Positions 41,859-60,541 of a stretch of 64,000 nucleotides of DNA are shown piece after piece. The stretch lies in IMG/VR virus record IMGVR_UViG_3300037400_001617, one strand, 5' to 3'. This DNA is from a virus (Duplodnaviria; Caudoviricetes). Below the pieces are notes generated by a model. That model did no database searches. It was not told the DNA's origin and worked only from the letters and a program-made list of their open reading frames with translations. The position numbers and the translations under genes are program-made. Position 1 is the first letter of the stretch. Each line of letters opens with the position of its first letter.

Positions 41859-41879
41859 ATGAACTCTCCTTTCATATAA

Positions 41880-42105: not shown

Positions 42106-42111
42106 ACTATT

Positions 42112-42142: not shown

Positions 42143-42204
42143 GTATGTACATCTCTACCCAATCACCAACGATACAGTAATCAAAGAAGAAAGGAGCGTG
42201 CCAT

Positions 42205-43014: not shown

Positions 43015-43017
43015 TAA

Positions 43018-44703: not shown

Positions 44704-44749
44704 TGCTTCCCAAACTATCCTATAATCTATAAATAGGAGGTTCACTTCA

Positions 44750-45172
44750 ATGGTAAACGAAAAAGGTAGCTTAACTTTTCTGAAGACTGATGCACAGTGT
44801 TTCTTTCAGCTTCAGTTAACAGTATGGAACCAAACTCCTAAGGGAGCTAAAGGAACTATCTTTCAGGTAAGTTCGCTCAACGAATATCAGATCGATGTCA
44901 TCAGTGATGAAGCACCTGGTCTGAAGACATACAACTGCAGAATCGTAGGATTCACTATGAGAAATCGTCCTGACTATAAGGGCTTTGTTAACTACGATAA
45001 AGAAACTAACCAGGCTAAGCTTGCAGAAGTAGATACTATCAAGATAGACTACTCCGAGGACGGCAAAGCTGGTGTTACTAGCATCAATGTATGCGACATT
45101 CGTGATATCAGATTAACCTATGCTCCTGGACAGGACTTTGAAGTTATAAGAGATATCAAGGATTTCAGATAA
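44750..45172 (+). CDS. Hypothetical protein (IxIDxS family paralog)
   Basis: IKIDYS...SINVCDIRDI; promoter AACT-ATCCTA-TAA at 44713-44725. Confidence 0.7.
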   Translation: MVNEKGSLTFLKTDAQCFFQLQLTVWNQTPKGAKGTIFQVSSLNEYQIDVISDEAPGLKTYNCRIVGFTMRNRPDYKGFVNYDKETNQAKLAEVDTIKIDYSEDGKAGVTSINVCDIRDIRLTYAPGQDFEVIRDIKDFR

Positions 45173-45184
45173 GGGGTGATTGCG

Positions 45185-45745
45185 ATGGCCAAGTTCTACA
45201 ATGCTGATGGCACTATCACATCTACCGATAAAATCCTTGACGAATACTATAAAAGGAAAGGTACACCGATGGACTATAATGACTATCTCGGCAGTGATGC
45301 ACTTGAAGAGACTTCCAAAGATACAGGTTCTTGGAAGAAGGTAATCACTGGTACAAAAAGAAACAGCGACGGTACACCGAATATGGGTGACGTATCAGAC
45401 GGCTACCATACATTCGATGAACTCTACGAACACAGAAGCATTCTGTTCTTAGCATTACTGCGTTCTATACAGGATGTAAATGAGTTCGCTGAGTATGAAA
45501 GCCTTCATATTTCTGCACATCCATGGTACTCTAAACAGCATGAAGATGGAACTATGTTTCCTGGAATGTTCATTGCTGGTATGAGTACTGATTATGGAAG
45601 TGTAACATATCACTTCGACGAAAAGTATCTCCCCTTATTCGAAAAGGCTGAGATTGAGTACTTGGAGAGAGCACCTAAATGGGACGGCCACACTCCACAG
45701 GATGGACTTGAAGTTATAAAGTCTCTATTCTGTGGAAACGAGTAA
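45185..45745 (+). CDS. WDGH-motif phage protein
   Basis: SDGYHTFDELYEHR, W.SK.H.DG, F.AG, TYH, APKWDGHT. Confidence 0.75.
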   Translation: MAKFYNADGTITSTDKILDEYYKRKGTPMDYNDYLGSDALEETSKDTGSWKKVITGTKRNSDGTPNMGDVSDGYHTFDELYEHRSILFLALLRSIQDVNEFAEYESLHISAHPWYSKQHEDGTMFPGMFIAGMSTDYGSVTYHFDEKYLPLFEKAEIEYLERAPKWDGHTPQDGLEVIKSLFCGNE

Positions 45746-45763
45746 CTAAGAGAGGTTAGTTGT

Positions 45764-45910
45764 ATGGGAATGTATACCGAAGCAGAGATTTCTGCTACTT
45801 TAAGACACATAGATGACGAGCTGCACAATATCAATCTCAATCTTATAGAGTTGATCAAGGCGGTTCGTTCTATAAATGAAACTAAGAAAGAGGTAAACGC
45901 ACATGAATAA
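45764..45910 (+). CDS. Small coiled-coil protein (48 aa, not in ORF track)
   Basis: MGMYTEAEISATLRHIDDELHNINLNLIELIKAVRSINETKKEVNAHE; SD GAGG. Confidence 0.65.
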   Translation: MGMYTEAEISATLRHIDDELHNINLNLIELIKAVRSINETKKEVNAHE

Positions 45911-46784
45911 GAACAACATTTCACCCACAGGCATCATGGCAACTTTTGCCAACATTGTCTCCTTTCTCATAGGAGCATACAACAAGGATAACGAATTCGA
46001 CGTTAAGAAGGACTTCGTTGACCAGGTCAAGGGATACAAGAACTTTCTTGCAGATCAGAACTGGGATGCTACTACTCTTACTGCTGAAGAGATCACTGCA
46101 TTCGGCGGTCTCAGAATAAAACCAGAGGAAGATCTCTTCTTTATTCCTCCTTGGCTCGTAGAGTTCCTTCCTGAGGACTTCCAGCTTATTGACATAGAGC
46201 TTGGTACAAACGCTCACGTTGTAGTAAAGGATATAGACAGGGAAAAGCTCTGGAGCACGGATACAAACGACTACGGTGTCACCAAGTATGCTATTCAGGC
46301 AGTCTCAGAGTCTGACTTTAAGTCAAATAAGGGACTTATGTTCTCTGAAGCTCTTAAGCTGATCACTGATCCTAATAAGGATGGTATGATTATGAGACTT
46401 CCTAACTGGCAGCCCGATGTGTTCATCAAGACTCAGTGGACTGATGAGAACAGTAAGATGACTCATCCTTACCTTTACGTAACCAGCAGATTCGGCTGTG
46501 TTCCGTGGAAGGAAACTGTACCTGAGATGTTCAGCTGTAAGTGGGAAGTATATCAGGAGGACTACTATAACGAAGTAGTAGAAGAGATGAAGAAGCAGAA
46601 GGAAGAGCTCTTCCAGAAGGCTGTACAGCAGAACTTAGCAGCTAACGGTGGTAGGGGTGTAAACGTAGAGCAGATCGGAAAGGATCTTCTTGAGGGACTC
46701 ATGCAGAAGCCTGAAGAGAAGAATGACGGCTGCGAGTGCGATCCTGAAATCGACGCTACTCATTCTGACGAAGTAGATAAATGA
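45903..46784 (+). CDS. Fusion protein containing a DUF2829/Tad2-like domain
   Basis: LMFSEALKL...MRLPNW...FI...PYLYVTSRFGCVPWKETVPEMFSCKWEV (about 46332-46553) follows the DUF2829 pattern F.EAL..R..W..PY..VPW.....D.....W. Confidence 0.65.
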   Translation: MNKNNISPTGIMATFANIVSFLIGAYNKDNEFDVKKDFVDQVKGYKNFLADQNWDATTLTAEEITAFGGLRIKPEEDLFFIPPWLVEFLPEDFQLIDIELGTNAHVVVKDIDREKLWSTDTNDYGVTKYAIQAVSESDFKSNKGLMFSEALKLITDPNKDGMIMRLPNWQPDVFIKTQWTDENSKMTHPYLYVTSRFGCVPWKETVPEMFSCKWEVYQEDYYNEVVEEMKKQKEELFQKAVQQNLAANGGRGVNVEQIGKDLLEGLMQKPEEKNDGCECDPEIDATHSDEVDK

Positions 46785-46911
46785 ATAGCTGAACTGGAGT
46801 CAGGATTCGCTAAGCAAGAGAGCATCGTGACTAACCAGTTCGAAGAAGACTTCTTTTATCCAAGCTTCGACAGTGAGATCACTTCGCAGTTCATCTGACA
46901 AAAAACAAACG

Positions 46912-46933
46912 GGAGGGCGCATAAGCGTCCTCC
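46912..46933. terminator. Bidirectional terminator
   Basis: GGAGGGCGC/GCGTCCTCC with A/T-rich tracts on both sides. Confidence 0.65.
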
Positions 46934-46943
46934 TATATTTTGT

Positions 46944-48488
46944 TTACTTCATAGACACTACATGGTTCTTAACCACGATGTGATTAGAACATATAGTGTC
47001 AAATCCCTCGTTGTGAGAGATTACCATGAGTGTGCTATGACACTCACGGTTGATAAGATCTATTGCCCTGTTTCTGTTTCTCTCATCAAGGTTTGACGTA
47101 ACCTCATCAAGAATGAAGATCTTGTTTGGGTTGCGTCTCATCTCGACTATTGTCCTTGCAAGCAGCACGCGCTGCTTGAGACCTGTTGAAAGCTTGAAGC
47201 CCTTTGATCCAACAGGGCAGTCGAGAAGCTTATCGATCTCTACTGGAACGCCTTCAACTCTGAAAGCGTTTCTAAGATCGTTAAGCATATCGAGTTCCTT
47301 AAAGATCTTGATGATCTCTTCATCAGTAACAGTCTCGTCACCAAATGTAACATTGTTTCTGAGACTATCATTCAGAAGAGTTGTCTCCTGGAATACATAG
47401 TATGTATCCAGATTTTCTGGGAGACCAAAGATCTCTTCAGACTTAATCGCACCAGCGATCAAGTTTCCGAAACTTGACTTGCCCTCACCAGATGCACCAG
47501 TGATAAGATATCTTTCACAGCGTCTGATACTGATGTTGTTCACAGTGAACTGAGCGCTGTCCTTCCCATAATCGAAAGAGCCAGATACTGTGAACTGAGA
47601 AGGCATAGAAATCTTCTCATCGTTATCGTTGCCTTCGAGAGCTTCAATCTGCTTGGTAGCAGCCTTAATTTTCGAAGTGTATGCAACGATATCGATGCAC
47701 TTGAAGATTGCATTGTAGATTACATATTCGTTAATGAATACATAACCTAAAGTCTCCTTGTCCCATCTAAAGAAGTATGCAATGAAGCATACGGGGATAT
47801 AAGAGACAGCCTGGCACAGACCGAACCAAGCTCTCTTCTTGATATTGGTACTGTACTTGTACGAGTCATCTGCTGCGTCAGCGACTCTGTTAAATAAGTA
47901 AGAGAACTTACTAGCGTACTTGAGAGTAAGTAAGTTCTCAAGACCATCAACAAGAACTGACTCCAGCTTAGCAGCAGCATCATGTTCGTTCTCGTTGAAC
48001 TTGAACTTTTCGTTGCCCCATAAGTACATAGCAGAGCTAAGTACGAAGCAGCTGAAAAGGATGACTATAGATGCAATGGAAGTACGGATCTTCCATATCA
48101 TAATAGCCATAGGAAGAATACAACTGAAACAGGATACGATAGTCACATATCTCTGTCCAGTGTATTCAGAGATCTTATTGATACTGTCGATGATAGTACC
48201 AACAGAGATCTTATTGATACTCTTAGTCTCAGACCAAGCCGACTTCTCAGTCAGTCTTGTCTTAAGATCAAAGTATACTGTTGAGCTAGCCTTACGACCA
48301 GCTGCATCTCTCGCTGTATCGAGAACGGCGAAAGCTACATTGCAGATGATGAGACCGATAAACAGTCTCTTACTGAATCCATTAGCAATGAGCTTTGAAA
48401 TCACAGTAGCGTTGGCAGTGTTCTGCAAGCCAACAAGGATGGTGAGGACCACCATTAAGATGGTCAGCATAGTTACTTTCTTCTTCAT
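46944..48488 (-). CDS. ABC transporter, fused permease plus ATPase
   Basis: Several TM helices; Walker A GASGEGKS, Q-loop VFQE, signature LSTGLKQR, Walker B ILDE, ISH; early-type promoter at 48551-48559. Confidence 0.88.
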   Translation of the reverse strand: MKKKVTMLTILMVVLTILVGLQNTANATVISKLIANGFSKRLFIGLIICNVAFAVLDTARDAAGRKASSTVYFDLKTRLTEKSAWSETKSINKISVGTIIDSINKISEYTGQRYVTIVSCFSCILPMAIMIWKIRTSIASIVILFSCFVLSSAMYLWGNEKFKFNENEHDAAAKLESVLVDGLENLLTLKYASKFSYLFNRVADAADDSYKYSTNIKKRAWFGLCQAVSYIPVCFIAYFFRWDKETLGYVFINEYVIYNAIFKCIDIVAYTSKIKAATKQIEALEGNDNDEKISMPSQFTVSGSFDYGKDSAQFTVNNISIRRCERYLITGASGEGKSSFGNLIAGAIKSEEIFGLPENLDTYYVFQETTLLNDSLRNNVTFGDETVTDEEIIKIFKELDMLNDLRNAFRVEGVPVEIDKLLDCPVGSKGFKLSTGLKQRVLLARTIVEMRRNPNKIFILDEVTSNLDERNRNRAIDLINRECHSTLMVISHNEGFDTICSNHIVVKNHVVSMK

Positions 48489-48606
48489 ATAAAGGCCTCC
48501 TTTCAACCTCAGTCAAATTTGTTATTAGAAGAATGATTATAACTACCTATATAGTATACAGCCCAAAAGCAGTAAGATGACGGGAGCACTTAAGCTCCCG
48601 CCACTC

Positions 48607-50973
48607 TTAGTAGTCATAGTAGAAGTCGTCTTCATCATCGTCATCCACACTACTGTATGGATCATTCATATCCTTATAGAACTGGTCTATAGTACCAAGC
48701 ATACAGTACTGGTTTGCAGGATCCTCCAACTCTTCTATAGGTTTGTTGAACTTCTGGCTGTATGCCTTTCTACCTACTGGAGTAGAGAGAATCTTCTGAA
48801 GAGCCTCTTGGTCTTCTTGTCTCTGCTGTTCCAACCAGTCCTTGTAGAGCATGCTACCGTCATCCAGATCCTTAAGCTGCTGCTCTACTCTACCATGCAT
48901 ACCCTCAAGGTCGCCAGAGATATTGATTCCCTCTGTAGCCTCGAAGCTCTGGAAGATAGGCTCTTCAGCTTCATGCTGTTCAGTCTGGAGGTTAGGTATT
49001 CTTATACCCCAGTTCTCTGTAACGTTCTTACCATAGTACAGAGGATAGAGTGAAAGGAGATAAGAGAATACAGCATCATCGTGGCTCTGAGCAGAGTGGT
49101 CGATTCTACCAGTCTTCTTAACCTCAAGGTTCTTCAGCTCTTCATATATGATAGGAGATACGAACTTGTCCTTATGGTCTTCCATTCTAAGCATAAGAAG
49201 GTCCATAAGCTGTTCTCTAACTATCTTAGTGTTGTCGAGTCCATAGACTCTAGTGAGCTGTTTCTTACGATTGATATGGACTCCGTCATACTTCTCCTCT
49301 ATAGTCCTCTCCTTAATCTCATAGTAGAGATTAGACTTGATCTTAGACTTGAGAAGCTTTGCCAATACGCCTGTACCTACACCATTACGCTCTACTACTA
49401 CCAATGCATTTGGTGTCCAGTTGCTTACTACATCATAGATTACCCTAGCAAAGTCAATAGTAGATATGTAGTTACAGTTAAAGTCTGCCATAAGCTTAGA
49501 CGTTGTGGAATCTGTTATACTCATAGCGGATGAGTCTTTGTTATAGCCAGCGGCAACGTCACAGCCAATGATAGGAGCAATACCTGGTCTGAGCTCTTCA
49601 TATACATTGAGAAGAAATGCTCCGACATAGACTTGCTTCTTAGGTTGTCTAACGAATCTGCCAACAATATCAAGCTGTTCTTTTGTGAATGGTGAGTTCT
49701 CTGCAGACATAGCCCACTCAAGAAGGAACTCTCGACGGATGTCTGTCCACTTGTACTCTTGTTCACGGCAACGCTCTTTGAACCACTCTTCTGAATAGCC
49801 AAGCTGTTGATAAGTAGTCTTGATATGTACGAAGATACTCTTCTCGTTGGAGTTGAGTATATTGGTGAGCTCTTGGAGTGAAAGATCATACCAGAGTTCT
49901 GAGAATGGAGTCATGTTGCTTCTCATATCATACATATACTTACCGAACTCATCAGAGATGAATCCAGGTGTAGATGTAAGACAAAGTCCATGAGGAGCTC
50001 CATTGTCTTGACAGTTTCTGAAAGCTCTAGTCATGGCAGGCATTGCATTAGACAACGACTCTCCAAGGAATGGGAAGAACGCAGACTCGTCGAGCCAACA
50101 GTTAGTGATAGTACGACCTCTGAGGAGGGAGATAGCAGCAGTCTTAGAGGTTGCTCTAGCGAGTGCTTCTATCTTGTTGAAGTTGATTGGGTGCTGTACA
50201 TAAGATACAGTATTACGAGCCTTAAGCTTCTTACCGTTCTGACCAAATGCTTGGTCGAATCTAAGGTAAGATGGCAGAGCCTGTATAATCTTCTTCATAT
50301 CGTCAAGGTTTCTCTTAGCATCGTCCAGCTTCTTATTGAGGAAGACCATGTTAGCGTTTCGAGAACCGAAGTTGTATACCCATGAATACCATACTTCACA
50401 TCCTACTGTTTTACCAGTCTGACGAGGCTGCTCATGGTATACATTAAGAGACAATGTAAAGCAGAAGTTAAGAGCTAGGTTTCCTCTGTCAAGTTTGTAC
50501 CTGACGTAAGGTCCACCCTGGCTCTGTACTCTAACAACTTCTCTGATGTAGTAGAAGAAGTTACGTTGACACTCTATAAAGATCTTTTGCTTCATGAACA
50601 GAGGAAGCTTAGGATCATAGGGATCTACATTAGCGAGATCCTTATCAAAGAGTATAAGGAAGAACTTGTTGTTCTTGATTCCTATAGCTTTCAGATAGTA
50701 GTGCATATCCAGAAAGCTTTGGTTCTTAGTATTCATCTGAAAGTAGACAGTAGACCTTTGTCCCGTAAGAGGATCAGTCATCACGTTCTTATTCTGACTT
50801 GGTGGGACAAATGGCATTGTCTTCTTAGGTTTCATTTGTGAAGGATCAATATATTGGTTAGTCTGAACAGTTCCATCGTAAAAGATCTCTGATTCGTTAG
50901 AGCCAGTATATGTGCGGTCTTCTTTAGCGACATCAGTATCTTCGTCAAAAATCACTTCAATAGTACTTGCCAT
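48607..50973 (-). CDS. Terminase large subunit
   Basis: Walker A PRQTGKT, Walker B WLDE, TSTP, nuclease GCDVAAG, ERN, HDDAVFS. Start MASTIEV lies downstream of promoter AACA-TCTCCG-TAA (51021-51033). Confidence 0.92.
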   Translation of the reverse strand: MASTIEVIFDEDTDVAKEDRTYTGSNESEIFYDGTVQTNQYIDPSQMKPKKTMPFVPPSQNKNVMTDPLTGQRSTVYFQMNTKNQSFLDMHYYLKAIGIKNNKFFLILFDKDLANVDPYDPKLPLFMKQKIFIECQRNFFYYIREVVRVQSQGGPYVRYKLDRGNLALNFCFTLSLNVYHEQPRQTGKTVGCEVWYSWVYNFGSRNANMVFLNKKLDDAKRNLDDMKKIIQALPSYLRFDQAFGQNGKKLKARNTVSYVQHPINFNKIEALARATSKTAAISLLRGRTITNCWLDESAFFPFLGESLSNAMPAMTRAFRNCQDNGAPHGLCLTSTPGFISDEFGKYMYDMRSNMTPFSELWYDLSLQELTNILNSNEKSIFVHIKTTYQQLGYSEEWFKERCREQEYKWTDIRREFLLEWAMSAENSPFTKEQLDIVGRFVRQPKKQVYVGAFLLNVYEELRPGIAPIIGCDVAAGYNKDSSAMSITDSTTSKLMADFNCNYISTIDFARVIYDVVSNWTPNALVVVERNGVGTGVLAKLLKSKIKSNLYYEIKERTIEEKYDGVHINRKKQLTRVYGLDNTKIVREQLMDLLMLRMEDHKDKFVSPIIYEELKNLEVKKTGRIDHSAQSHDDAVFSYLLSLYPLYYGKNVTENWGIRIPNLQTEQHEAEEPIFQSFEATEGINISGDLEGMHGRVEQQLKDLDDGSMLYKDWLEQQRQEDQEALQKILSTPVGRKAYSQKFNKPIEELEDPANQYCMLGTIDQFYKDMNDPYSSVDDDDEDDFYYDY

Positions 50974-51040
50974 AATAACACCTCTTTCTGTAGTTGATAC
51001 AGTGGGCTCAATAGCCCTCTTTACGGAGATGTTCGACAAG

Positions 51041-51068
51041 AAAAAATAACCTCCTGGTTAGAGGAGGT
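51041..51068 (-). terminator. Intrinsic terminator
   Basis: ACCTCCT-ctaacc-AGGAGGT followed by TATTTTTT on the minus strand. Confidence 0.75.
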
Positions 51069-51198
51069 GTATCTAACTGATATACCGACGTTTGTGAGCT
51101 GTATATCATAGATACTAAATAGCGTAGATCATTCAGAAATGAGGACAGGAGGGCATAGTTTTATGGCTTTACCCTCCTTGATTTTCGGCCAGTTTTAT

Positions 51199-51804
51199 TT
51201 AGTCCTCTACTTCAGTTCCAGGGAGTCTTCCCTGGAAGAAGGAGAACTTATTTGCATCGAGACACCCGTAAAAATTACAGGAGTCTCCGTTATAGTTGAA
51301 GCATGCAATATTCCAGTACTTATCTGTGAGATGAGTAATGGATACTAAAAGAAGGCACGCAGCCTTCTTCATGATAAGCGGAATTGATTTCCACCATACA
51401 TTTACAATCTCATCCTCAAAGATTACTTCTGCCAGAGGTATCTCCTTAATGAAATTGTCCTTGGTGTTCTTCTCGATGGCCTGTACGCAAAGACCAAGGT
51501 CTGTCGAAAATCTTTTTGAAGTTACCACCGCTAAGGAGTTAATCACTCCATACGGATCCCCGTCTCTTATTGCGTCTATTAAAGTATCGATGCTTTTCGT
51601 AAAACTTACCCTGTTAAGGCACGAATCCTCAACAGGCTGTCCTGTTCCAGTTATATAATATTCCCCTGTTTCATGGTCGAACTTTGTTACAAGTTCGAAA
51701 AGAATAGACTTGATCTGTGCATTTGTGAATGTCTCTGCTGGCATTACTTTTGCGATCTCGTTTACTGCTGTAGCCTCATTAGCCTTCTTTGTGTTGTTTC
51801 TCAT
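51199..51804 (-). CDS. Hypothetical 201-aa protein lacking an SD
   Basis: Protein-like ORF between an early promoter and a terminator. Confidence 0.7.
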   Translation of the reverse strand: MRNNTKKANEATAVNEIAKVMPAETFTNAQIKSILFELVTKFDHETGEYYITGTGQPVEDSCLNRVSFTKSIDTLIDAIRDGDPYGVINSLAVVTSKRFSTDLGLCVQAIEKNTKDNFIKEIPLAEVIFEDEIVNVWWKSIPLIMKKAACLLLVSITHLTDKYWNIACFNYNGDSCNFYGCLDANKFSFFQGRLPGTEVED

Positions 51805-51809
51805 AATTC

Positions 51810-51985
51810 AAGCTCAGTAGGTGCTACACCTTTGACAGAGGTCAAGCTGAGCATAATGTAGTTTCCTTTGGAAACGCCCATTCATAGGGGCACACCCTTT
51901 TTCATGAATGCAGGGATCCTGCTTCTCCATGCAGGATCATAGAATTTTTGCATCCATGGTATGGAGTTAATCAATTCTCTCATAC
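51810..51985 (-). ncRNA. Structured leader or ncRNA
   Basis: Nested stems CAUGGAUGCA/UGCAUUCAUG and GAUCCUGC/GCAGGAUC; hairpins UGCCC/GGGCG and GUUUCC/GGAAAC; three-way junction closed by GCUCAG/CUGAGC. Confidence 0.55.
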
Positions 51986-51991
51986 ACCTCA

Positions 51992-52022
51992 ATGATATAC
52001 AACCATCTTAGCTAACTTTTAC
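51992..52022 (-). promoter_or_regulatory. Early-type bipartite promoter GTAAAAGT-N14-GTATATCAT
   Basis: Third copy of this architecture. Confidence 0.7.
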
Positions 52023-52086
52023 GATAGCCACTACATATATATAATCAGTGCCTACACGGGCACTTAAAATAAAGGAGGACACACAT

Positions 52087-52911
52087 ATGCCACTCGGTAA
52101 TAATTCCTACAACAAAGGCAATTCAAACGGAAAGAAGAACGACTTCTCTCCAACTACTTACTCTAGCGTCAAAATCTCTAACTTTGACTCTGGTGTAGAT
52201 CCATCATCAGTATCCTTTTCATTCTGGAAGGGAATGCTCAGAATAACAATCACCCCTATCAAGAAGAGTGCAGACGGAGGTTATAACTTCGATAAGGACA
52301 ACGCCACAGAAGTTTATCTCACTCCTACCAGAGCAGCTCTCTTCCTTAACTATCTTAAGCTCTTCAGAAAAGATCCCAATGCTTACGTTAACGTAGGTGT
52401 TACTGCAGGAAACTCTATCATCTACGTAACTAACGGTGCAGAGGAGTTCGACGAGCAGGACGGCAATGGACTTTTCCTTATTATAAAGAATCTTGATGAT
52501 AAGGGAAACATAGATTCCGAAATCGCTTACCAGTTCAGAACTACACCTGACAAGGATAACTTCGGTATCCTCAACTACAAAGGCGGTACAGATTTCAGTA
52601 AGGACTATGAGTACACAAAGTTCCTCGACTATGATATCTTTACCAACACAGTAGCTCAGTACGTTAACGGCAACAGTAGTGCAGTTGCAGCTACAGTTGT
52701 TGACGCTACAAGGTTCTCATTCAACAGTATCATCAGCAAGCTGACAAGCATTCAGGAGAATCTCGGCATTGATACTGGAAGCGGATACAAGAGAAAGTCG
52801 AATGCATCGACATTCTTCTCAAATAACGGCAACGAGTCTTCATCTTCGTCTATTCATGGTAGCGACAAGATCGAAGAAGTTGACGACTACAATGATCTCA
52901 TAGACATGTAA
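52087..52911 (+). CDS. Possible single-stranded DNA-binding protein
   Basis: Beta-rich core, S/N/G linker and acidic C-terminus EEVDDYNDLIDM; promoter variant TACA-TATATA-TAA at 52032-52044. Confidence 0.4.
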   Translation: MPLGNNSYNKGNSNGKKNDFSPTTYSSVKISNFDSGVDPSSVSFSFWKGMLRITITPIKKSADGGYNFDKDNATEVYLTPTRAALFLNYLKLFRKDPNAYVNVGVTAGNSIIYVTNGAEEFDEQDGNGLFLIIKNLDDKGNIDSEIAYQFRTTPDKDNFGILNYKGGTDFSKDYEYTKFLDYDIFTNTVAQYVNGNSSAVAATVVDATRFSFNSIISKLTSIQENLGIDTGSGYKRKSNASTFFSNNGNESSSSSIHGSDKIEEVDDYNDLIDM

Positions 52912-52966
52912 CAAAGATAGGGATGTGAAAACATCCCTATCCTTCTCTTTGAAATGGAGTGATACT

Positions 52967-53491
52967 ATGTTTAAGAGAATACTCAATAGGATCAAAAGAA
53001 AGCCTCTAACCAGAGAGGAAGAACTTAAACGTAAATACAGGGGTATGACACGAGATGAGATTATCGAATATCTATGTATGAACGAGAGGTTCGAAGAACT
53101 TAAAGAGATGCATCACTATTGGTTCGCCAATAGCGAGACCAAAGAACTTTGTTCTGTATTCGAAGGATGTCCGATATCGTTCTTTATGGAGTACATGGCG
53201 ATGCATAAGAACGAGAAGTATAAGCATGATGCTATATCACTGTATGACGAAGACCGTAGAAATATATTCTTCTGGGAAGGTGGTACTAGAATGCCATACT
53301 ATCCAGACAACTACATCATCACCAAACTCTACTATACAGGATTAACTTCTGGATTCTATGGTAGGGTTAAGAAGGTTGAATACGAAGAGATAATAAATAC
53401 AATCAAAAAGATGCCTGTAACGAAAGCAAGCCTAAAGTATCTATCTCAGATAGTTCATGATACCTTAAAAGGAGGATTGGATGAAAGTTAA
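52967..53491 (+). CDS. Hypothetical protein
   Basis: Start MFKRIL after GGAGTG. Confidence 0.7.
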   Translation: MFKRILNRIKRKPLTREEELKRKYRGMTRDEIIEYLCMNERFEELKEMHHYWFANSETKELCSVFEGCPISFFMEYMAMHKNEKYKHDAISLYDEDRRNIFFWEGGTRMPYYPDNYIITKLYYTGLTSGFYGRVKKVEYEEIINTIKKMPVTKASLKYLSQIVHDTLKGGLDES

Positions 53492-53990
53492 AGATATAAT
53501 CCCTTTACTCAAGACATGTAAGGGTAAAGAGAACGAAGAGGTAAACTTCTTTATTAGTACATACGAAAGAATGTACGGAGAAGACCTTTGTACTAACACG
53601 TTAAGCGGACTACCTATAGCAAATGAAGAGACTCTTAGCTATTTCAACGAAAGTGAAGTAGCTGCTATAGATTCAGACGAAAAACACATGATTACTATAT
53701 ACATCAAAGAGAATGAAGAACAGCTTAATGCCAACTTCGTAGGAAGACCATTATCTGACTTCATAGACTTTATGCAATGTATATCTGGTAGTGTGTACTA
53801 TCATTATGACTTTGAAGTATATAACGATAGTATGCTTCATACTAGATCATATGTGAGAGTAGATCATGCTTATGATGAAGCTCTATCAGAAGTCAAGCCA
53901 GATAAAATCAATGCTTTCTTAGAGCATAGTGTAATAACCCATATATCTGAAGAGTCTCAATCGTATCAGCTTTACATAACCGTAAAGTGA
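53481..53990 (+). CDS. Hypothetical protein
   Basis: 169 aa; SD AAGGAGG. Confidence 0.7.
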   Translation: MKVKDIIPLLKTCKGKENEEVNFFISTYERMYGEDLCTNTLSGLPIANEETLSYFNESEVAAIDSDEKHMITIYIKENEEQLNANFVGRPLSDFIDFMQCISGSVYYHYDFEVYNDSMLHTRSYVRVDHAYDEALSEVKPDKINAFLEHSVITHISEESQSYQLYITVK

Positions 53991-53999
53991 TAAGGAGGA

Positions 54000-54701
54000 A
54001 TGACAATGGACAACAAAGCTCACCAGCAGAAGATTACAAACATGGTCATTGATGCTAAGTGTATTCTTGACTATGACCTCACGATCATGAAGATCTTCCA
54101 GTTCAACTACAACCATCCAGACTATGTGGATCAGGAAGTTATGCATTATTCTCTTGGACAGCTTAAGAACGCTCTTGTAAAGCGCAAGGATGCTAATCCT
54201 CTGACTATATGTATCCCTGAGACAGCTATGGATAGAGCAAACATTGAACAGATTCTTGAAGACATCTATAAGAACAATGAGTATGATATCTTCAAGTATA
54301 TCACTGTTACTGGAACTAGTAAGCTCATCTACATGATGCAGAATCATAGTTCTTTCGATGTAACTGTGGTGTGTAAAGATGAAACCGAGAAGGGTCTTAT
54401 AGAAGGACGTACCAAGTCTTTCAAGACTGTAATCGGATACGACTCTATCGATCCCAAAAACTTCAATGGATTCATGTTCAAGGATATCAGAGATGTCTTT
54501 GCTCTCCCATATAAACTTGAGAAGAAGACTCTCTTCTTCCAGAACTATGAATTCAATATCACTCGTGATACTGATGGAACACCGTTTCCCAATGCAGAGT
54601 ATGCGGTAGCATTAATGCGAGAAGGAAACTACCCAATACTTGTAGAAGTGTATGATCATACTACACTCGAATCTCTTTCTAAACAGCAAACAAGTCAATA
54701 A
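54000..54701 (+). CDS. Hypothetical protein
   Basis: 233 aa; SD AAGGAGG. Confidence 0.72.
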   Translation: MTMDNKAHQQKITNMVIDAKCILDYDLTIMKIFQFNYNHPDYVDQEVMHYSLGQLKNALVKRKDANPLTICIPETAMDRANIEQILEDIYKNNEYDIFKYITVTGTSKLIYMMQNHSSFDVTVVCKDETEKGLIEGRTKSFKTVIGYDSIDPKNFNGFMFKDIRDVFALPYKLEKKTLFFQNYEFNITRDTDGTPFPNAEYAVALMREGNYPILVEVYDHTTLESLSKQQTSQ

Positions 54702-54723
54702 TCAATCAAAAGGAGGAAATGCT

Positions 54724-56457
54724 ATGATAAGCAGCAATATAGTTGAAAAGGATACTCTTAGAAGAGTTCAGCTCGAAACACTTGAAGCTCTTCACAGATA
54801 CCTTTCACAGTCATTCGGACCATACGGTTCAAACACCATCCAGTATAAGAAAGAGGGTTATCCTCGTTACACTAAGGACGGTCACACAATTCTTAAGTCA
54901 ATCATGTTCTGCGGCGAGATCGAGCAGGCAGTACTTGCAGACATCGAAGAAGAGACAAGAGCACAGGCTAAGAGAGTCGGTGACTCTACAACCTCTGTTA
55001 CTATTCTCTCATATCTTATATTCAAGAAGCTTACTGAGAGAATCGAAAGTCAGTTCACAAAGACACCTCCTGCAGACATTGTAAGAGCTCTCAAGGAAGT
55101 TGTAGATGCAGCATCTACAATCATCAAGGCTCACGGCAGAGAAGTTACTCTTGACGATATCCGTAAGATCTCACTCATCTCTACAAACAATGACGAGAAG
55201 CTTGCAGAAGAGATCGTTAACGTTCATAAGGATCTCGGTCTTAACGCATACATCGACGTTATGGCTGGTTCTGGAGAAGAGTTCGTTCGTAAGACATACG
55301 ACGGCATGTTCTTCGACTGTGGTTACCACGATGCATGTTTCATCAACATGCCTGAAAAGTCTGTAAACAGACTTGAGAATCCTCGTATCTACTACTTCGA
55401 AGATCCTATTGACACTGTAAACTACGGCGAGCTGTTCGATACAATCATTGCTCACAACATCATCAATCCGATCAATGAGATGAACAGCAATCGTCCTAAC
55501 AACAATGAGATTCCTCAGATCATTCCTACAGTCATCATAGCTCCTAAGATCGTAAGAGACTATGCTCGTACTCTCGAGGTTGTAATGAACTACTGTGCTA
55601 AGTTCACTCAGGCTAATCTCCCTAACACTATCCCGCTCAACATCATCACTGGTGTTACGGATACTGATAAGGTGTACCTGAAGAACATACTCAATCTCTG
55701 CGGAGTTCCTACTATCAACAAGTATGACGACGCTAAGGCTGAAGCAAGAGACCAGAAAAACGGCACTGCTCCTTCAATCAAGAATGTATGGGAGTGGTAC
55801 GGTACTGCAGGTTGCGTAGAGTCTGGTGCATTCTCTACAAAGCTTATCGATCCTAAGAACTACAAGAATGAAGATGGTACATATACAGACGTCTTCAATG
55901 CAGTTCTGAATGATCTCGATGCTCGTATCGCTGAGCTTGAAAAGCAGCACAACGAAACTCTCAAGATCTACCAGTACAAGAAGCAGAAAAACTCACTTCT
56001 CGGTAACATGGTAGAACTCTATGTAGGCGGTATCACTATCGCTGACAGAGATCAGGTAAGAGACCTTGTTGAAGATGCTGTTCTCAACTGTCGTTCAGCA
56101 GTAAATGAAGGCGTTGGCTACGGTGCTAACTTCGAAGGACTCAGAGCATTCAAGGCTCTCATGGATGTATCACTCGGCGATGGCTCTCTCAAGGAAGAAA
56201 TCGTTAAGTGCTTCTATGAAGCATACAAAGAAATCTCTGAGCTTCTCTACAGATATATGGATGATCCTGAGGGTAAGGTTGCACTTTCTCTCGCACAGGA
56301 TTGTCCGTTCGATGTAAGAACTGGTGAGAAGGGTGAGAACGTTCTCTCCTCTATCGATACTGATATTTGTGTACTCAACAGTATCTCAAAGATCATCTCA
56401 CTGATGGTTACTGCTAACCAGTTCCAGATGTCTAATCTCAATATCAACAAGTATTGA
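54724..56457 (+). CDS. Phage GroEL-like chaperonin
   Basis: SFGPYGSN, TKDGHTILKSI, VGDSTTS, DGMFFDCGY, ELYVGG, VEDAVLNCRSAVNEG. Confidence 0.9.
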   Translation: MISSNIVEKDTLRRVQLETLEALHRYLSQSFGPYGSNTIQYKKEGYPRYTKDGHTILKSIMFCGEIEQAVLADIEEETRAQAKRVGDSTTSVTILSYLIFKKLTERIESQFTKTPPADIVRALKEVVDAASTIIKAHGREVTLDDIRKISLISTNNDEKLAEEIVNVHKDLGLNAYIDVMAGSGEEFVRKTYDGMFFDCGYHDACFINMPEKSVNRLENPRIYYFEDPIDTVNYGELFDTIIAHNIINPINEMNSNRPNNNEIPQIIPTVIIAPKIVRDYARTLEVVMNYCAKFTQANLPNTIPLNIITGVTDTDKVYLKNILNLCGVPTINKYDDAKAEARDQKNGTAPSIKNVWEWYGTAGCVESGAFSTKLIDPKNYKNEDGTYTDVFNAVLNDLDARIAELEKQHNETLKIYQYKKQKNSLLGNMVELYVGGITIADRDQVRDLVEDAVLNCRSAVNEGVGYGANFEGLRAFKALMDVSLGDGSLKEEIVKCFYEAYKEISELLYRYMDDPEGKVALSLAQDCPFDVRTGEKGENVLSSIDTDICVLNSISKIISLMVTANQFQMSNLNINKY

Positions 56458-56617
56458 GTGGCATACTCCGACCCATAAGGTACTGATGAGTATAAACTAG
56501 GGTACCTGTTCAGATATCCCTCTCTCGGACATATGTGTGGGTATCGTTGGGGCTAGTGTCCTTTCAACACCATTCGAAGAGGTGGGTAGGGAGTTTATCT
56601 CCCTACCCATTCTCTCT
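56458..56617 (+). ncRNA. Structured 3' element ending in a terminator-like hairpin
   Basis: ACCCAUA/UGUGGGU enclosing AGGUAC/GUACCU; final hairpin GGGUAGGGAG/CUCCCUACCC (56584-56608). Confidence 0.4.
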
Positions 56618-56675
56618 AATCAACTCTTACCGAACGTCTAACTTTACTATAACTGATTTAATGGAGGTGTACGAT

Positions 56676-57458
56676 ATGAGTAAACTGAGACTCACGTTTG
56701 ACGAATACATTAAGAACCCTTCTGGTAAGGGATCATCAATTAACACTTCTAGAGATACAACTGCTCAGTTCTATCAGACTAAATACGATGCATTGGTAGC
56801 TAGAGATGGTCTGGTGAAATATGAAGTCTATAGAACTGCATCAGATGTGTACTACATACATTTCCATATCCCATCGAATTCTACTAAGGGATTCTTTTAC
56901 GATACTGTAGTCGAACTCAACCCTAGCAACTCGACTACCAAGGGAAACGTAAAGTCCTACTTCGTCAGATTTTATGCAAACGATCCCAACTTCAACTTCA
57001 CTCATGCTCATGCTTACTATACACATGGTTTGATTATACCAGAGCTTGATAAGAAGCTCTCGTTGCAAGTAAAAACAAGCAAAGCTAACACCCGTAACCC
57101 AGATAATGCTGTAGGTTATGTACAGAGTATATATTTTGCTTATCTTACCATGCAAAAGGACAATCTGTTCGATAAAGGGATTCTTGATAGAAAGGCTTCT
57201 GTTGGAGGAGTTAGTAGATTCTCTAAGGATGTCCTTACTTATAAAGACAAGGAAAAGGAAAGAACCAAGTTTATAGAAGACCAAAAACGAAAGGCAGCTC
57301 CTGCAGGAAAGGAGGAGCTTAAGCCTAAAGTGATTTCGTCAAGATTCATTGGTAATGGCCTCTCTCATATACCAGTAGTCTCAAAAATCACTAAGACTTC
57401 TAAGTCATCTTCCGCTATAAAGAATACTCGAACCTCTAAGACTACAAAGAGGAGATAG
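56676..57458 (+). CDS. Hypothetical basic protein
   Basis: Start MSKLRLTF after GGAGG; promoter AACT-TTACTA-TAA at 56640-56652. Confidence 0.75.
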   Translation: MSKLRLTFDEYIKNPSGKGSSINTSRDTTAQFYQTKYDALVARDGLVKYEVYRTASDVYYIHFHIPSNSTKGFFYDTVVELNPSNSTTKGNVKSYFVRFYANDPNFNFTHAHAYYTHGLIIPELDKKLSLQVKTSKANTRNPDNAVGYVQSIYFAYLTMQKDNLFDKGILDRKASVGGVSRFSKDVLTYKDKEKERTKFIEDQKRKAAPAGKEELKPKVISSRFIGNGLSHIPVVSKITKTSKSSSAIKNTRTSKTTKRR

Positions 57459-57459
57459 A

Positions 57460-57479
57460 TTATATACTATAGATGAGTC
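57460..57479 (+). promoter_or_regulatory. Early-type promoter TTATATACTATAGATGAGTC
   Basis: 19/20 identical to 10315-10334 (-). Confidence 0.7.
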
Positions 57480-57521
57480 CAGAGCATCAACTATACCGCT
57501 CTGGTTAAGGAGGATATACAC

Positions 57522-59207
57522 ATGATACAGCCAACAACAATCAACAACCCTTACGCCTACTATAACTTCTTACACCCGCAGAAGTATAATGTAGTAGGAA
57601 TCGCCAATGATGAACAAGCAATCTATAATCTGTTCACGTATTTCGAAGTCCCACATTGGGTATCTATCGATAACTGGCTACAAACAGATGATGACATGGT
57701 GTTCTATACAATTAAGAACGCTATAGTCATGCCAACGATCTCTGAGTTCTTTGGAATGAACCCAGCAGATCCAAACACAATAAACGTTAATTCGTTTATG
57801 GTAACTCCTAAGAGGTGTTACAACGGTGACGATCTGCGTCAGCATATCTGTCACTATCTCAATTACTTCTGCAAGTTCTATGATCCTGATAAAGAGCTTG
57901 CTAGTCATTATGTGCGTATGAAGCACATGATTGACTTTGGACTCACCACACTTACTGGTGAGAGACATCCGTATAAAAAGGAAGAGTTTATACTCGACAT
58001 CCGTCGTTATATTCTTGGATCTACTATGTGTGCTAAGGTAGCTAAGATGAACGAGGACAACTACTCGCTCAAGCTTAACTATAAGAACAACACAAACCAG
58101 GCTCTTCAGTATAATGATACGCATGGTAAGATATTCATGGAGATTAGTGTGTTCATGAATATGCTTATCCCTCTCGTGAGTCACTTTGTGTATAAGTCTA
58201 AGATGACTTCGACACAAGAGATAGACGAACTCTTTCAGACTGTATATCAGTTTCTCTTTGATCGTTATATAAACACTGTAGATCTAAAGGCTAAGCTGTT
58301 TGAGACAGCCAACACGACGATCGCAAGAGATCAGAGAACTAACAAGGATCTTTGGGACAAGAGTGAGATAAGAGGTATGGATATCTCTGTCAACTCTCTC
58401 GATGCTGTAGATACACTTGTACTTCAGGTAATGCCTAAGTACAAATATAACCAGAATATGGTTATGTATAACTTCACATCGATTAGAAATACTGCTATCC
58501 AGTATGCTGTTGGAATAGCATATGAGTATGATTTGGTTCCACTCTCTTCCTCTAAGAGAGATGGTGAAGACTCTACTTCTCAGTTTGATAAGTTTGAGGC
58601 TACACTTGGTAAGGCTGATGAAGCAAAGTTCCTACATAACACTGCTGTCGCTTACACTGTTATGAGGAACATCGAAAGTCATTATGGTCCTTTCCCACAG
58701 GACATGATAGACTTTTACAAGATAGAACTCGGAAAAGGTGCTAAACCCGTCATTAACTCTTTCCAGTATAAACTTATAACAAACTTCTTCGGAAAGCTGT
58801 TTGGATCAGTACTTCCGATGAAGACTATTAATCTTGATGAATACATCGAGCTTATGATATCCACCAAGAAGAATCTCGTAGCTCAGAACTTCTGTATTCT
58901 TCCTGAGATTATTGCTGGAAGAGTAGTAAAGCTTTCAACAAGAACTGTTCTCAGTAAGAAGCATGAAGATATGCTTACTAGCAGTGAGCATTGGGCTCAG
59001 ATAAGACACAAGTATATGGACAATCAGGTGATACTTTCTCGCATCAAAGCTGATTTCGCTGCGTTGATATCTTCTGATTTCCAGCTCATCCGTTATGATC
59101 CTACAACTGGAAAAGGGGACCAGTATAACGGTCAGCCAATAATAATCAACTCTTCTATATCCTACAGGATTGTAGAAGAATTCTTATTATACGAGCTTAT
59201 GGTATAA
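57522..59207 (+). CDS. Hypothetical protein; candidate promoter-specificity (sigma-like) subunit of the non-virion RNAP
   Basis: 561 aa, mostly helical, early promoter, two genes downstream of the chaperonin. The function is inferred from synteny only. Confidence 0.4.
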   Translation: MIQPTTINNPYAYYNFLHPQKYNVVGIANDEQAIYNLFTYFEVPHWVSIDNWLQTDDDMVFYTIKNAIVMPTISEFFGMNPADPNTINVNSFMVTPKRCYNGDDLRQHICHYLNYFCKFYDPDKELASHYVRMKHMIDFGLTTLTGERHPYKKEEFILDIRRYILGSTMCAKVAKMNEDNYSLKLNYKNNTNQALQYNDTHGKIFMEISVFMNMLIPLVSHFVYKSKMTSTQEIDELFQTVYQFLFDRYINTVDLKAKLFETANTTIARDQRTNKDLWDKSEIRGMDISVNSLDAVDTLVLQVMPKYKYNQNMVMYNFTSIRNTAIQYAVGIAYEYDLVPLSSSKRDGEDSTSQFDKFEATLGKADEAKFLHNTAVAYTVMRNIESHYGPFPQDMIDFYKIELGKGAKPVINSFQYKLITNFFGKLFGSVLPMKTINLDEYIELMISTKKNLVAQNFCILPEIIAGRVVKLSTRTVLSKKHEDMLTSSEHWAQIRHKYMDNQVILSRIKADFAALISSDFQLIRYDPTTGKGDQYNGQPIIINSSISYRIVEEFLLYELMV

Positions 59208-59266
59208 CCACAAATCTGGACAGAGAGATCTTCTCTCTGTCCTCTATTATAAAAAGGAGGACTCAT

Positions 59267-60541
59267 ATGAGACCAAAGATAGGACAGGTCGTACTTATCG
59301 ACCCAGAGGACAAACTCGAACTGAGAGATAAAGAATCTACCGTAGGAACTGTTATCAAGGTAGAACGTAACCAGAGCACACTGTTAATTTCTATAAACCC
59401 AGAGAAGAAGATAACAGTTCCCAACAAGTATCTCTACAAGATAGAAATGGATGAGACTAATCCGCCATACGTTATAGTGGAGAGAACCCTTCCAAGAGTA
59501 CGATTCACTCAGAACGACTTAAACAAGCTTGATACTGTAACAAAACTTATAGAGCACTTGTCTAATAGACTTGCAGAGTTTGTTCCCAGTAACGAGAAGA
59601 GCGAAATGCTCGATGTGTGTGCATTTGCTAAGAGTAATATGCTCTACACTATGAGCAAGATCAATAGACTCATTTCTGGTGAACTGGAGACTGAAGCAAG
59701 GGATATGTTTATCAACAGATTCCACAAGTATGCTGAAGATGATGAAGAGCCAAGAGACATTAAACCTAATGACACACCAAACACAAAGCTTGTACCAGAA
59801 GAAGTCTCAGAGGATTTCGCAAGAGAAATCGTGAACAGATTCTGCAAGTCTGCTGAAGAGGAGGATATCGGTAAGTTTGACGAGGATACTGTGTTCAATA
59901 GCGATATACTCAAATGGACCAAAGAAGCTTCAAACGGAAACGATATGCTTACAAGGATCGTCATGGATCAGTTTAAGGCTAAGATACACTCTACTTCTAT
60001 AGACGTCTTCAACAAACGTGAAACTATCGAACAGCTTTTCGATGAGAAGTGTGAAGAGCTTGTCGGTAAAGAGCACAATATGAGAGAATTGATATCTGCT
60101 ATGGAAATCATATTCAAGAGCAGTACCAAGTCTATAATCAACATCCCGATCCTTATTGTTATGGATCCTCTGGACCTTATAAAGACTCTTATCGAAAGAC
60201 ATCCTACGAAGATCATGACATACCAGGACCTCATAAGCTTTATCAGTGAAGTTGGATCAGTGGAGGAGATCCTTGATGCAGAGGGGCTTCATCTTCCTGA
60301 TGTAGTGAAGAGCATAGCTGTACCAATCTTCCCGTTTAACGATGAGGTTACACCGACCTCTATCATAAGTATACTCAAGGACACTATAACAGCTATCTGT
60401 ACAGAGGTGTCTGAGCATACAGATATCGAGATACTCGACGATGATGAAATAGAAGATGTAGGACTTGACGATACGTTTATGCTACATCTTCCTATACAGA
60501 TTACTACTATGGCAGTCAAGCCATTCGGAGGAGAAGATTGA
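59267..60541 (+). CDS. Hypothetical protein
   Basis: 424 aa; SD AAGGAGG. Confidence 0.75.
   Translation: MRPKIGQVVLIDPEDKLELRDKESTVGTVIKVERNQSTLLISINPEKKITVPNKYLYKIEMDETNPPYVIVERTLPRVRFTQNDLNKLDTVTKLIEHLSNRLAEFVPSNEKSEMLDVCAFAKSNMLYTMSKINRLISGELETEARDMFINRFHKYAEDDEEPRDIKPNDTPNTKLVPEEVSEDFAREIVNRFCKSAEEEDIGKFDEDTVFNSDILKWTKEASNGNDMLTRIVMDQFKAKIHSTSIDVFNKRETIEQLFDEKCEELVGKEHNMRELISAMEIIFKSSTKSIINIPILIVMDPLDLIKTLIERHPTKIMTYQDLISFISEVGSVEEILDAEGLHLPDVVKSIAVPIFPFNDEVTPTSIISILKDTITAICTEVSEHTDIEILDDDEIEDVGLDDTFMLHLPIQITTMAVKPFGGED

Follow-up and report, generated by a model that had tools for sequence, protein, structure and literature searches.

Promoter-early stem-loop (PeSL) cassettes have been described in T4-type phages (Arbiol et al. 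2010, PMC2839356; Comeau et al. 2014, PMC4122927), while the mRNAs of the Bacillus jumbo phage AR9 possess 5' untranslated regions (UTRs) of up to 491 nt that carry unexplained motifs (PMC5312081). The promoters of AR9 follow the consensus AAATATATATTAT-(6N)-G for early genes and AACA-(6N)-TA/G for late genes (Lavysh et al. 2017, PMC5312081). With respect to translation, a local absence of mRNA structure has been reported to permit translation without a ribosome binding site (Scharff et al. 2011, PMC3121790). The subject of the present analysis is a gene for a protein of 201 amino acids (aa) located beside the large terminase gene (terL) on the uncultured virus record IMGVR_UViG_3300037400_001617 (Duplodnaviria; Caudoviricetes), of which a stretch of 64,000 nt was analysed (the window, to which all positions refer). 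The finding is that two uncatalogued structured RNAs lie around this gene, which is a hyper-polymorphic orphan without a Shine-Dalgarno (SD) sequence; a mechanism for its translation and a role for its protein are proposed from the comparison of alleles. A sequence-only reading of the window had first drawn attention to the gene, and its observation was confirmed as real and conserved, with a three-way junction and two mini-ORFs in the leader being its weakest parts.

Source phage and relatives of the locus

The source is an uncultured AR9/PBS1-like phage of the rumen or cattle gut with a genome of approximately 230 kb, and the public runs that contain the window stretch are labelled as bovine gut or animal gut metagenomes. 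Its TerL was found to share 96–98% identity with that of four IMG/VR contigs, two of which are complete genomes (229 and 232 kb). Among cultured phages, it is closest to the Bacillus jumbo phages AR9, PBS1 and vB_BsuM-Goe21, with a TerL identity of 35%. The terL relatives carry an open reading frame (ORF) of 176–192 aa in the equivalent place, with 23–25% identity to the 201-aa protein of the window, and sizes across the family are 176–205 aa. An exhaustive phmmer search of 1.8 billion representatives returned five relatives of the protein, one with 62% and four with 27–30% identity. Peptide-pattern and tblastn searches with the protein gave no close match, and tblastn against GenBank phages was negative; in AR9 and PBS1 no homolog was found, either for the ORF or for the RNA elements.

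When the invariant leader sequence was used to scan metagenome contigs, only two new ones were obtained, carrying the allele L020 and a frameshifted copy, L021. The latter (L021:169-342) is an L002-like allele with a frameshift past codon 57, which may be a broken copy or reflect a sequencing error. The comparison set consisted of the window and nine other alleles of related contigs, among which there were eight full-length ORF alleles and seven full-length leaders. The order of divergent 274-aa gene, leader, ORF, 3' UTR and terL was kept wherever flanking sequence sufficed, and the flanks thus co-occur with the protein homologs. The ORF family is restricted to this phage lineage, with one copy per genome in two complete 230-kb genomes.

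A genuine and hyper-polymorphic protein gene

The 201-aa ORF is a genuine protein gene under purifying selection. The closest allele pairs gave a ratio of nonsynonymous to synonymous substitution rates (dN/dS) of 0.09–0.12 with dS being saturated, which identifies the ORF as protein-coding and under purifying selection. The proportion of synonymous differences (pS) was 0.62–0.91 and all eight full-length alleles were mutually distinct. This saturation of synonymous sites indicates that the alleles are old and did not arise from recent hypermutation. Divergence spans the entire ORF and every substitution class, the C-terminal half being the better conserved part of the protein, and the position of the start codon is kept in all alleles.

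Comparison of the window with L010 (backbone approximately 97% identical) in bins of 100 nt showed nucleotide identity of 97–100% up to position 51805, a drop to 56–65% over 51804–51305, a return to 80–86% at the end of the ORF and in the 3' UTR, and 98% from the terminator on. Flank identity was 84–99%, compared to 56–65% for the ORF (nucleotide level). With the more distant L002–L005, BLAST homology was found to end at approximately 51781 and to restart at approximately 51071. In two gut samples, the flanks had 2–4 times the depth of the window allele's ORF and contigs were broken in the leader and the 3' UTR, indicating that several alleles coexist within one sample. Leader, ORF and 3' UTR types were also found to assort independently (L017, for example, combines an L002-like protein with an L004-like 3' UTR), which suggests frequent recombination within the conserved flanks. 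Many ancient and reshuffled alleles are the pattern expected of a gene of host interaction or of an arms race, and the hypervariable ORF is a probable front-line gene of this kind.

AlphaFold2, run on the nine-sequence alignment, modelled the protein as a compact alpha/beta fold (pLDDT 79.7, pTM 0.76) with residues 1–22 forming a disordered, Asn/Lys-rich N-terminus. No family match was obtained for any family member with Pfam, PHROGs or PADLOC, in the last of which a single member matched the CARF model with an E-value of 0.0056, under any meaningful threshold. Structure and profile searches with the protein, of the kind that the sequence-only reading had suggested, gave no meaningful match: a sequence-profile search of the PDB and Foldseek searches of the PDB and BFVD with the predicted fold returned nothing, searches of the ESM Atlas by shape and by features found no match, and the best Z in VIA-align was 4.5 for the whole model (a value seen for unrelated chains) and 3.4 for the C-terminal domain.

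Three known kinds of variable or RNA-flanked gene were considered and rejected. A target of a diversity-generating retroelement was ruled out due to there being no RVT_1 match and no second gene copy in the two complete 230-kb genomes. For a group I intron with an embedded ORF, no Rfam intron match was found, the upstream neighbour is divergently oriented, terL is complete with its own promoter, and the ORF occurs in every relative and not sporadically. A type III toxin-antitoxin system (ToxIN-like) was rejected with no tandem repeats in 50900–52200 and no consistent PADLOC match.

The folded leader

The leader (52022–51790) has a minimum free energy (MFE) of −68.7 kcal/mol (z = −3.4), with none of 200 shuffles folding as well. 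All seven full-length leaders, folded singly, gave an identical layout of five domains (D1 to D5, Table 1), and the four further stems that had been placed ahead of a three-way junction are seen in the MFE fold. MAFFT alignments of D1 and D2 were not consistent with the structure, so that for the helices of these two domains the folds of single sequences were used in place of the pair counter. The stem of D1 is formed by GUAUGAGG.. and ..CUUCAUGC, or by GUAUAAGG.. and ..CCUUAUAC in L017. Support for D1 is allele-by-allele folding, whereas D2, D3 and D4 show compensatory changes.

D2 consists of an outer stem, an A/U-rich internal loop, an inner stem (GAUCC../..GGAUC) and an apical loop. The outer stem occurs in three versions of 10–11 pairs each (CAUGGAUGCA/UGCAUUCAUG, ACCUG-CUGUA/UGCAGCAGGU and UCCUGAUGUA/UACAUCAGGA), and substitutions in the inner stem are compensated. 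Its apical loop always presents an SD-like GGAGA, which is a perfect AAGGAGA in three alleles. Across D3 and D4, four of ten pairs were altered on both sides, and all slid controls dropped to 35–54% pairing.

The closing stem of D5 and the 18-mer GUGUAGCACCUACUGAGC, found once in the window, are invariant in all 9–10 sequences. The three-way junction described earlier (GCUCAG/CUGAGC closing UUGAC/GUCAA and AGGUG/CACCU) is present and ends 7 nt before the AUG, but its inner arms belong to the window/L010 allele type only; other allele types carry CCGUG or GCGUG in place of AGGUG, and the interior of D5 folds otherwise. The conserved single-stranded GGGUGU could pair with the invariant GCACCU of D5, both sides being without variation.

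An 11-nt sequence, CUAUGAUCCUG, is present in both structured leaders of the window (51932–51942 and 41949–41959). It contains UGAUCCUG, while D5 contains GCUCAG, and the two together resemble the 5' end of bacterial 16S rRNA (..UGAUCCUGGCUCAG); this likeness may be due to chance, with relatives reading UGAUCCC. Searching with Rfam 15 gave no match at gathering score in the whole window, riboswitch, leader and ribozyme families included, and at E-values up to 10 the region 50800–52300 returned two chance matches only, both to eukaryotic families.

The stop-proximal pseudoknot and the 3' UTR

The 3' flank (MFE −50.8 kcal/mol, z = −4.4) was likewise equalled by none of 200 shuffles. Two hairpins had been described between the stop codon and a terminator. 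Both the AGGAGGG/CCCUCCU and the GUAUCUA.. stems are present and the terminator was found by terminator scan, but alignment of the 3' UTRs revealed the first stem to be stem 2 (S2) of an H-type pseudoknot. All 12 pairs of this pseudoknot were 100% paired in seven sequences (all 83 cells), with 6 of the 12 changed on both sides. Its covariation score was reached by none of 500 shuffles, and slid partners dropped to 36–54% pairing. Loop 1 is CGAAAAUCA (allele consensus CGARRMWCA), loop 2 is RAA, and loop 3 is A-rich, ending in ..AAAACUAU, with AUAAAACUAU in the window allele. Across alleles the pseudoknot begins 5–11 nt past the stop codon, a distance within the footprint of a terminating ribosome.

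The 3' UTR has a length of about 160–216 nt and continues with a pyrimidine-rich linker and a long hairpin (Table 1), the linker of other allele types reading ..GUCUCCUUUCC.. between two extra hairpins. With regard to further copies of the pseudoknot, the loop 1 motif was found elsewhere in the window and in the two 230-kb genomes at places of which none folds as a pseudoknot, and a degenerate pseudoknot pattern run over IMG/VR returned this lineage and three chance matches only. Programmed frameshifting and read-through were excluded as no extended frame is conserved, with the −1, +1 and read-through extensions being short and non-conserved in eight alleles and no slippery site being present. 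An antiterminator pairing of S2 with the terminator was rejected since it is confined to the window's allele.

The RNA structure of both UTRs is under selection. The sequence-only reading had proposed folding the two flanks together, and no consistent complementarity above shuffled controls was found: duplex energies were no better than those of the controls in five of seven alleles and approximately 1–2 standard deviations (sd) better in L004 and L017. The ORF may be embedded in a larger functional RNA, as had been suggested: UTR structure is under selection, but the ORF is a normal protein gene and its flanks lack 5'–3' complementarity beyond that of shuffles.

Translation start without a Shine-Dalgarno sequence

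An SD scan was performed by scoring matches to AAGGAGGTG at 3–12 nt upstream of the start for all ORFs of at least 80 aa. An SD of at least five matching nucleotides, and mostly of 6–7, was found for 46 of the 58 ORFs of the window, compared to a score of 0 for the 201-aa ORF, in agreement with the original observation. No allele possesses an SD, all of them sharing the SD-less sequence ahead of the start. The refuting case named in the sequence-only reading, homologs with an ordinary SD and flanks devoid of structure, was not encountered, since every homolog has folded flanks in which compensatory changes occur.

Folding of the leader extends to position −8. In five of seven alleles no part of the 5' region is more open than the segment from the AUG to approximately +30, which is among the most open parts in the remaining two. 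The mean unpaired probability of the first 30 coding bases was 0.52–0.77, compared to 0.08–0.59 for the leader bins. The fraction of A at +4 to +45 (the first 14 codons) is 0.43–0.52 in every allele despite the saturated divergence, with the window allele ranking second of 48 genes (gene mean 0.37, sd 0.07). This open and A-rich start region fits the rule that absent local structure permits initiation (PMC3121790), and an open-window mechanism is favoured on that ground. The structure-dependent initiation suggested in the sequence-only reading is thus compatible with the alleles (folded to −8, open from the AUG to approximately +30, A-rich codons), the mechanism itself being a proposal.

Promoters and terminator

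The leader is preceded by a putative early-type promoter (Table 1) that is nearly invariant across all relatives. Its composite motif has three matches in the window (52022–51992, 42142–42112 and 2176–2206) against 0.46 expected, the second and third each lying ahead of another gene, and TGTATATCAT-6N-G is similar to ..TATATATTAT-(6N)-G, the early consensus of AR9 (PMC5312081). On this comparison with AR9, we infer that the transcript begins at approximately G51985 with a 5' UTR of 181 nt, and the RNA would open exactly at hairpin D1. No late-promoter motif was found upstream of the 201-aa ORF. At the other end, the terminator sequence UUAUUUUUUCUUG is invariant in relatives, and a late motif lies directly past it, 60 nt before the start of terL. 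The same motif occurs 23–60 nt upstream of 13 other window genes, often extended to GAACAYYYNNGTAA. An AR9-like non-virion RNA polymerase is probably in use in this phage, in which the AR9 late-promoter consensus precedes many genes.

A near-palindromic AT-rich box, ACATATATATAAT, was also observed between divergent gene pairs, at 52034–52046 (plus) and 21617–21630. Of the 13 positions in the early consensus of AR9, 11 are matched by this box, a possible promoter of the 274-aa gene at 52087.

Table 1. Positions of the features of the locus and its surroundings in the window
Feature	Positions	Strand	Basis or remark
Putative early-type promoter GTAAAAGT-N13-TGTATATCAT	51992..52022	minus	Composite motif
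Predicted transcription start (G)	51985	minus	AR9 rule, 6 nt past box
Leader domain D1, 5'-terminal hairpin	51959..51985	minus	Folds in every allele
Leader domain D2, two-tier hairpin	51903..51958	minus	Per-allele folds
Conserved single-stranded AAAAAGGGUGU	51892..51902	minus	GGGUGU invariant in 9 sequences
Leader domain D3, small hairpin	51876..51891	minus	4 pairs, 100% paired in 9 sequences, 2 double-sided changes
Leader domain D4, hairpin GUUUCC-AAA-GGAAAC	51861..51875	minus	6 pairs, 100% paired in 9 sequences, 2 double-sided changes
Leader domain D5, closing stem GCUCAG/CUGAGC	51812..51852	minus	MFE fold
Unpaired A/U-rich spacer UUGAAUU and AUG	51802..51811	minus	SD score 0
Orphan protein gene, 201 aa	51199..51804	minus	ORF call, dN/dS, AlphaFold
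H-type pseudoknot	51147..51191	minus	Begins 7 nt past the stop codon in the window
Pseudoknot stem S1	51191-51188 with 51167-51164	minus	4 bp: UGGC/GCCA, CUGC/GCAG or GGGG/CCCC
Pseudoknot stem S2	51178-51171 with 51154-51147	minus	8 bp
Pyrimidine-rich linker GUCCUCAUUUCU..	51116..51146	minus	Alignment, per-allele folds
Long 3' UTR hairpin	51069..51115	minus	Forms in every allele, three unrelated stem sequences
Intrinsic terminator, hairpin and U-tract	51040..51068 (hairpin 51068-51049)	minus	Terminator scan
Putative terL late promoter AACA-N6-TA	51022..51033	minus	Match to AR9 late consensus; neighbour, outside the cassette
Large terminase gene terL	48607-50973	minus	Window protein annotation
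Unalignable part 1, small ORF behind second structured leader	41469-41877		
Unalignable part 2, 144-nt gap	45735-45878		
Unalignable part 3, 201-aa ORF and 3' UTR	51074-51800		
Unalignable part 4, two genes missing from the L005 genome	52970-53991		

A proposed early-gene cassette and its alternatives

The initiation mechanism, the transcription start, the roles of the RNA folds and the function of the protein, as set out in this section, are what we infer from the conserved layout. The explanation favoured is that of a self-contained early-gene cassette in which an SD-less start is used through an open window and the UTR folds serve stability, processing and insulation. The early-type promoter would start an mRNA at approximately G51985, the first 181 nt of which would fold into the five domains. 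The 30S subunit would load on the sole open stretch of the 5' region, made up of the A/U-rich spacer past D5 and the A-rich first 10–15 codons, which encode the disordered Asn/Lys-rich N-terminus. The start would be chosen where structure is locally absent, the folded leader closing all other points of entry. Its product would be a 201-aa globular protein with many ancient, diverged alleles that are reshuffled by recombination in the conserved flanks. As the pseudoknot lies within 5–11 nt of the stop codon, a terminating ribosome would have to open its stem 1 (S1), and the pseudoknot may otherwise block exonucleases. Messenger RNAs are classically stabilised by a hairpin at +1 and by extensive structure at the 3' end, and the hairpins and terminator of the 3' UTR may protect and define the 3' end while insulating the terL late promoter from early transcription.

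A number of points weigh against this explanation. In hosts with strong SD usage, SD-less internal starts are generally thought to be poorly translated, and an open window may not suffice. The invariant 18-mer of D5, GGGUGU and the GGAGA loop of D2 suggest specific recognition by a factor or the ribosome, on which the open-window model is silent. For each helix, only approximately three independent sequence types underlie the covariation. Stability and insulation as functions of the UTR folds are generic guesses, and the presence of the pseudoknot once per genome is odd for a general stabiliser. The transcription start, translation and RNA ends are predictions, none of the public runs with the stretch being on record as RNA (one run labelled as metatranscriptomic is probably DNA and covers fragments only). 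With the invariant elements left unexplained by the open-window model, the mechanistic reading as a whole is held with middling confidence, standing an equal chance of being right or wrong.

An alternative that we consider unlikely treats both UTRs as non-coding RNAs with functions of their own, and the ORF as a cargo that can be swapped. The leader would then serve as an early structured RNA, and release of the 3' UTR would give a stable RNA reaching from the pseudoknot to the terminator. In it, the pseudoknot would act as a 5'-to-3' exonuclease block in the manner of a flaviviral exonuclease-resistant RNA (xrRNA), with the linker as an anti-SD-like seed. This reading would account for the UTRs being far better conserved than the ORF, with compensatory changes, and for UTR types recombining independently of ORF alleles; a second early promoter with a structured leader of approximately 230 nt (42142–41859) also precedes an ORF that is unalignable in a relative. 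The linker GUCUCCUUUCC, which we take to be close to a 16S 3' end, is found in two of three 3' UTR types, but the allele type of the window itself has a different linker, GUCCUCAUUUCU. Furthermore, no terminator or processing signal was found between leader and ORF, and the ORF is always present, in single copy and under purifying selection. The UTRs have no Rfam match, and no RNA run with the stretch is on record.

It is distinctly improbable, in our judgement, that the leader is a translational operator or ribosome platform, in which a factor or the 30S subunit would read the invariant elements and switch the SD-less ORF on or off, with the GGAGA loop of D2 acting as a distant or standby SD together with GGGUGU and GUGUAGCACCUACUGAGC. 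Such a role would explain why the adjacent stems covary around a GGAGA loop, a GGGUGU and an 18-mer that show no variation in sequence. The perfect AAGGAGA of the D2 loop in three alleles, the possible pairing of GGGUGU with GCACCU and the sharing of the 11-nt CUAUGAUCCUG with the second structured leader of the window point in the same direction. However, the GGAGA loop is approximately 120 nt away from the AUG, the long-range pairing is without covariation, no known riboswitch or leader family was matched, and no candidate binding protein was found. More speculative again, and regarded as a long shot, is the idea that the UTR pair forms a new RNA expression platform of giant phages, consisting of a leader resembling an internal ribosome entry site (IRES) and an exonuclease-resistant pseudoknot yielding a stable, regulatory 3' UTR RNA comparable to subgenomic flavivirus RNA (sfRNA). 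The IRES-like leader would recruit ribosomes via the GGAGA loop, GGGUGU and the D5 18-mer in a strongly SD-dependent host.

Translational coupling, whereby ribosomes of a leader mini-ORF would stop at or near an AUGA and reinitiate on the main ORF, had been offered in the sequence-only reading. The two mini-ORFs exist in the window, the 26-codon frame of which ends in the AUGA overlap, but their frame, start and stop are not conserved. An arrangement typical of coupling occurs in L005 (L005:3086-3196), where the AAGGAGA of the D2 loop is followed 10 nt on by an AUG that opens a 36-codon ORF ending in AUGA; this textbook combination is without counterpart in the other alleles. The upstream frames, which end at AUGA or at the UGA of CUGAGC, have lengths of 16 to 59 codons, start codons that are different or absent and, in most cases, no SD. 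Single-base indels in the loop of D4 change the reading frame between alleles, and the overlap is lost to AUGG in three alleles (L014, L015/L016 and L020). Moreover, the compensatory stem changes alter the leader peptide, indicating that conservation concerns the RNA, not the peptide. Coupling is thus very hard to credit.

The suggestion that the ORF is a small terminase subunit (TerS) flanked by inverted repeats acting as DNA pac signals draws on its place directly upstream of terL on the same strand, its typical size (176–205 aa) and its better conserved C-terminal half, but is most improbable. Judged by motifs only, the ORF has its own early-type promoter and is split from terL by a terminator and a distinct late promoter. 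No Pfam or PHROG terminase match was obtained for any of nine members (searches that a novel TerS could escape), and PDB fold searches gave nothing above Z 4.5. Pseudoknot-type covariation is moreover a signature of RNA and not of DNA, and the alleles are only 25% identical beside a TerL 97% identical.

Neighbouring variable loci

The window has a G+C content of 40.7% and also codes for a GroEL-like chaperonin and an ABC transporter; a search for tRNA and tmRNA genes found none. A second early-type promoter with a structured leader of approximately 230 nt (41859–42142, minus) precedes a small ORF (41514–41858) that is unalignable in the complete relative G002, where its leader and surroundings are 85–87% identical. 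The layout of conserved leader and variable ORF thus occurs twice in the window. The second leader shares with the first an equivalent promoter architecture, a long multi-hairpin form, CUAUGAUCCUG and an unalignable downstream ORF. It differs in not being homologous past the promoter, in preceding a gene with a normal SD and in having a terminator-like hairpin before that gene, and no 3' pseudoknot was seen at this locus.

When compared to the complete genome behind L005, the unalignable parts of 40001–60000 of the window were four only (Table 1). The variable loci beside terL suggest that early, moron-like genes there form a hot spot of allele exchange.

Two further differences in gene content and divergence were noted. 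The genes at 52925–53491 and 53481–53990 are absent from L003, L004 and L005 and present in L002 and L010. The ABC-transporter gene adjoining terL (46944–48506, minus) has 48–62% nucleotide identity between the window and L010, compared to a backbone of approximately 97%.

Comparison with known systems

The locus adds two uncatalogued, covariation-supported RNA motifs, the five-domain leader and the stop-proximal pseudoknot, and supplies motifs for the long unexplained 5' UTRs of giant phages with their own RNA polymerases. A single SD-less gene in a strong-SD genome provides a clean test bed for SD-independent initiation. The regulatory RNA flanks also exemplify recombination arms for allele exchange, with several alleles being present in one animal's gut sample.

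With regard to phage AR9, the likeness consists of the late motif AACA-N6-TA before terL and many genes, and of an AT-rich early box followed by a G 6 nt on. TerL is only 35% identical between the two, and the early box here is GTAAAAGT-N13-TGTATAYYAT and not AAATATATATTAT.

Classical H-type pseudoknots with an A-rich loop 3 include the preQ1-I riboswitch, luteoviral frameshift stimulators and exonuclease-resistant xrRNAs. The 3' element described here shares with these the S1-S2-S1'-S2' topology, the A-rich loop 3 (..AAAACUA..) and a position 5–11 nt downstream of a ribosome-pausing codon. It differs in having no Rfam match at E-values up to 10 and no slippery site or extended frame. Its S2 of 8 bp and loop 1 of 9 nt also set it apart from preQ1-I.

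The leader of E. coli rpsA is SD-poor and rich in hairpins. Cases of SD-independent initiation belong to genomes or organelles with many SD-less genes, or to Gammaproteobacteria with protein S1, whereas the gene described here is a lone exception among strong AAGGAGG sites. As in the cases of Scharff et al. 2011 (PMC3121790), it has no SD and a start codon situated in an unpaired A/U-rich window between stable hairpins.

The PeSL cassettes of T4-type phages are similar in having a conserved promoter and terminator or stem-loop flanks around small, variable and mostly orphan early genes, and in their flanks supplying homology for modular exchange between otherwise near-identical phages. The locus likewise has conserved flanks serving as putative recombination arms around a variable early ORF, a resemblance in function only. 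The PeSL motif is short (approximately 50–70 bp) and repeated, whereas the flanks here are single-copy, long, multi-domain RNAs (181 nt and about 160–216 nt) with compensatory changes and a pseudoknot. Furthermore, PeSL cassettes exchange unrelated genes, whereas the ORFs exchanged here are diverged alleles of one family.

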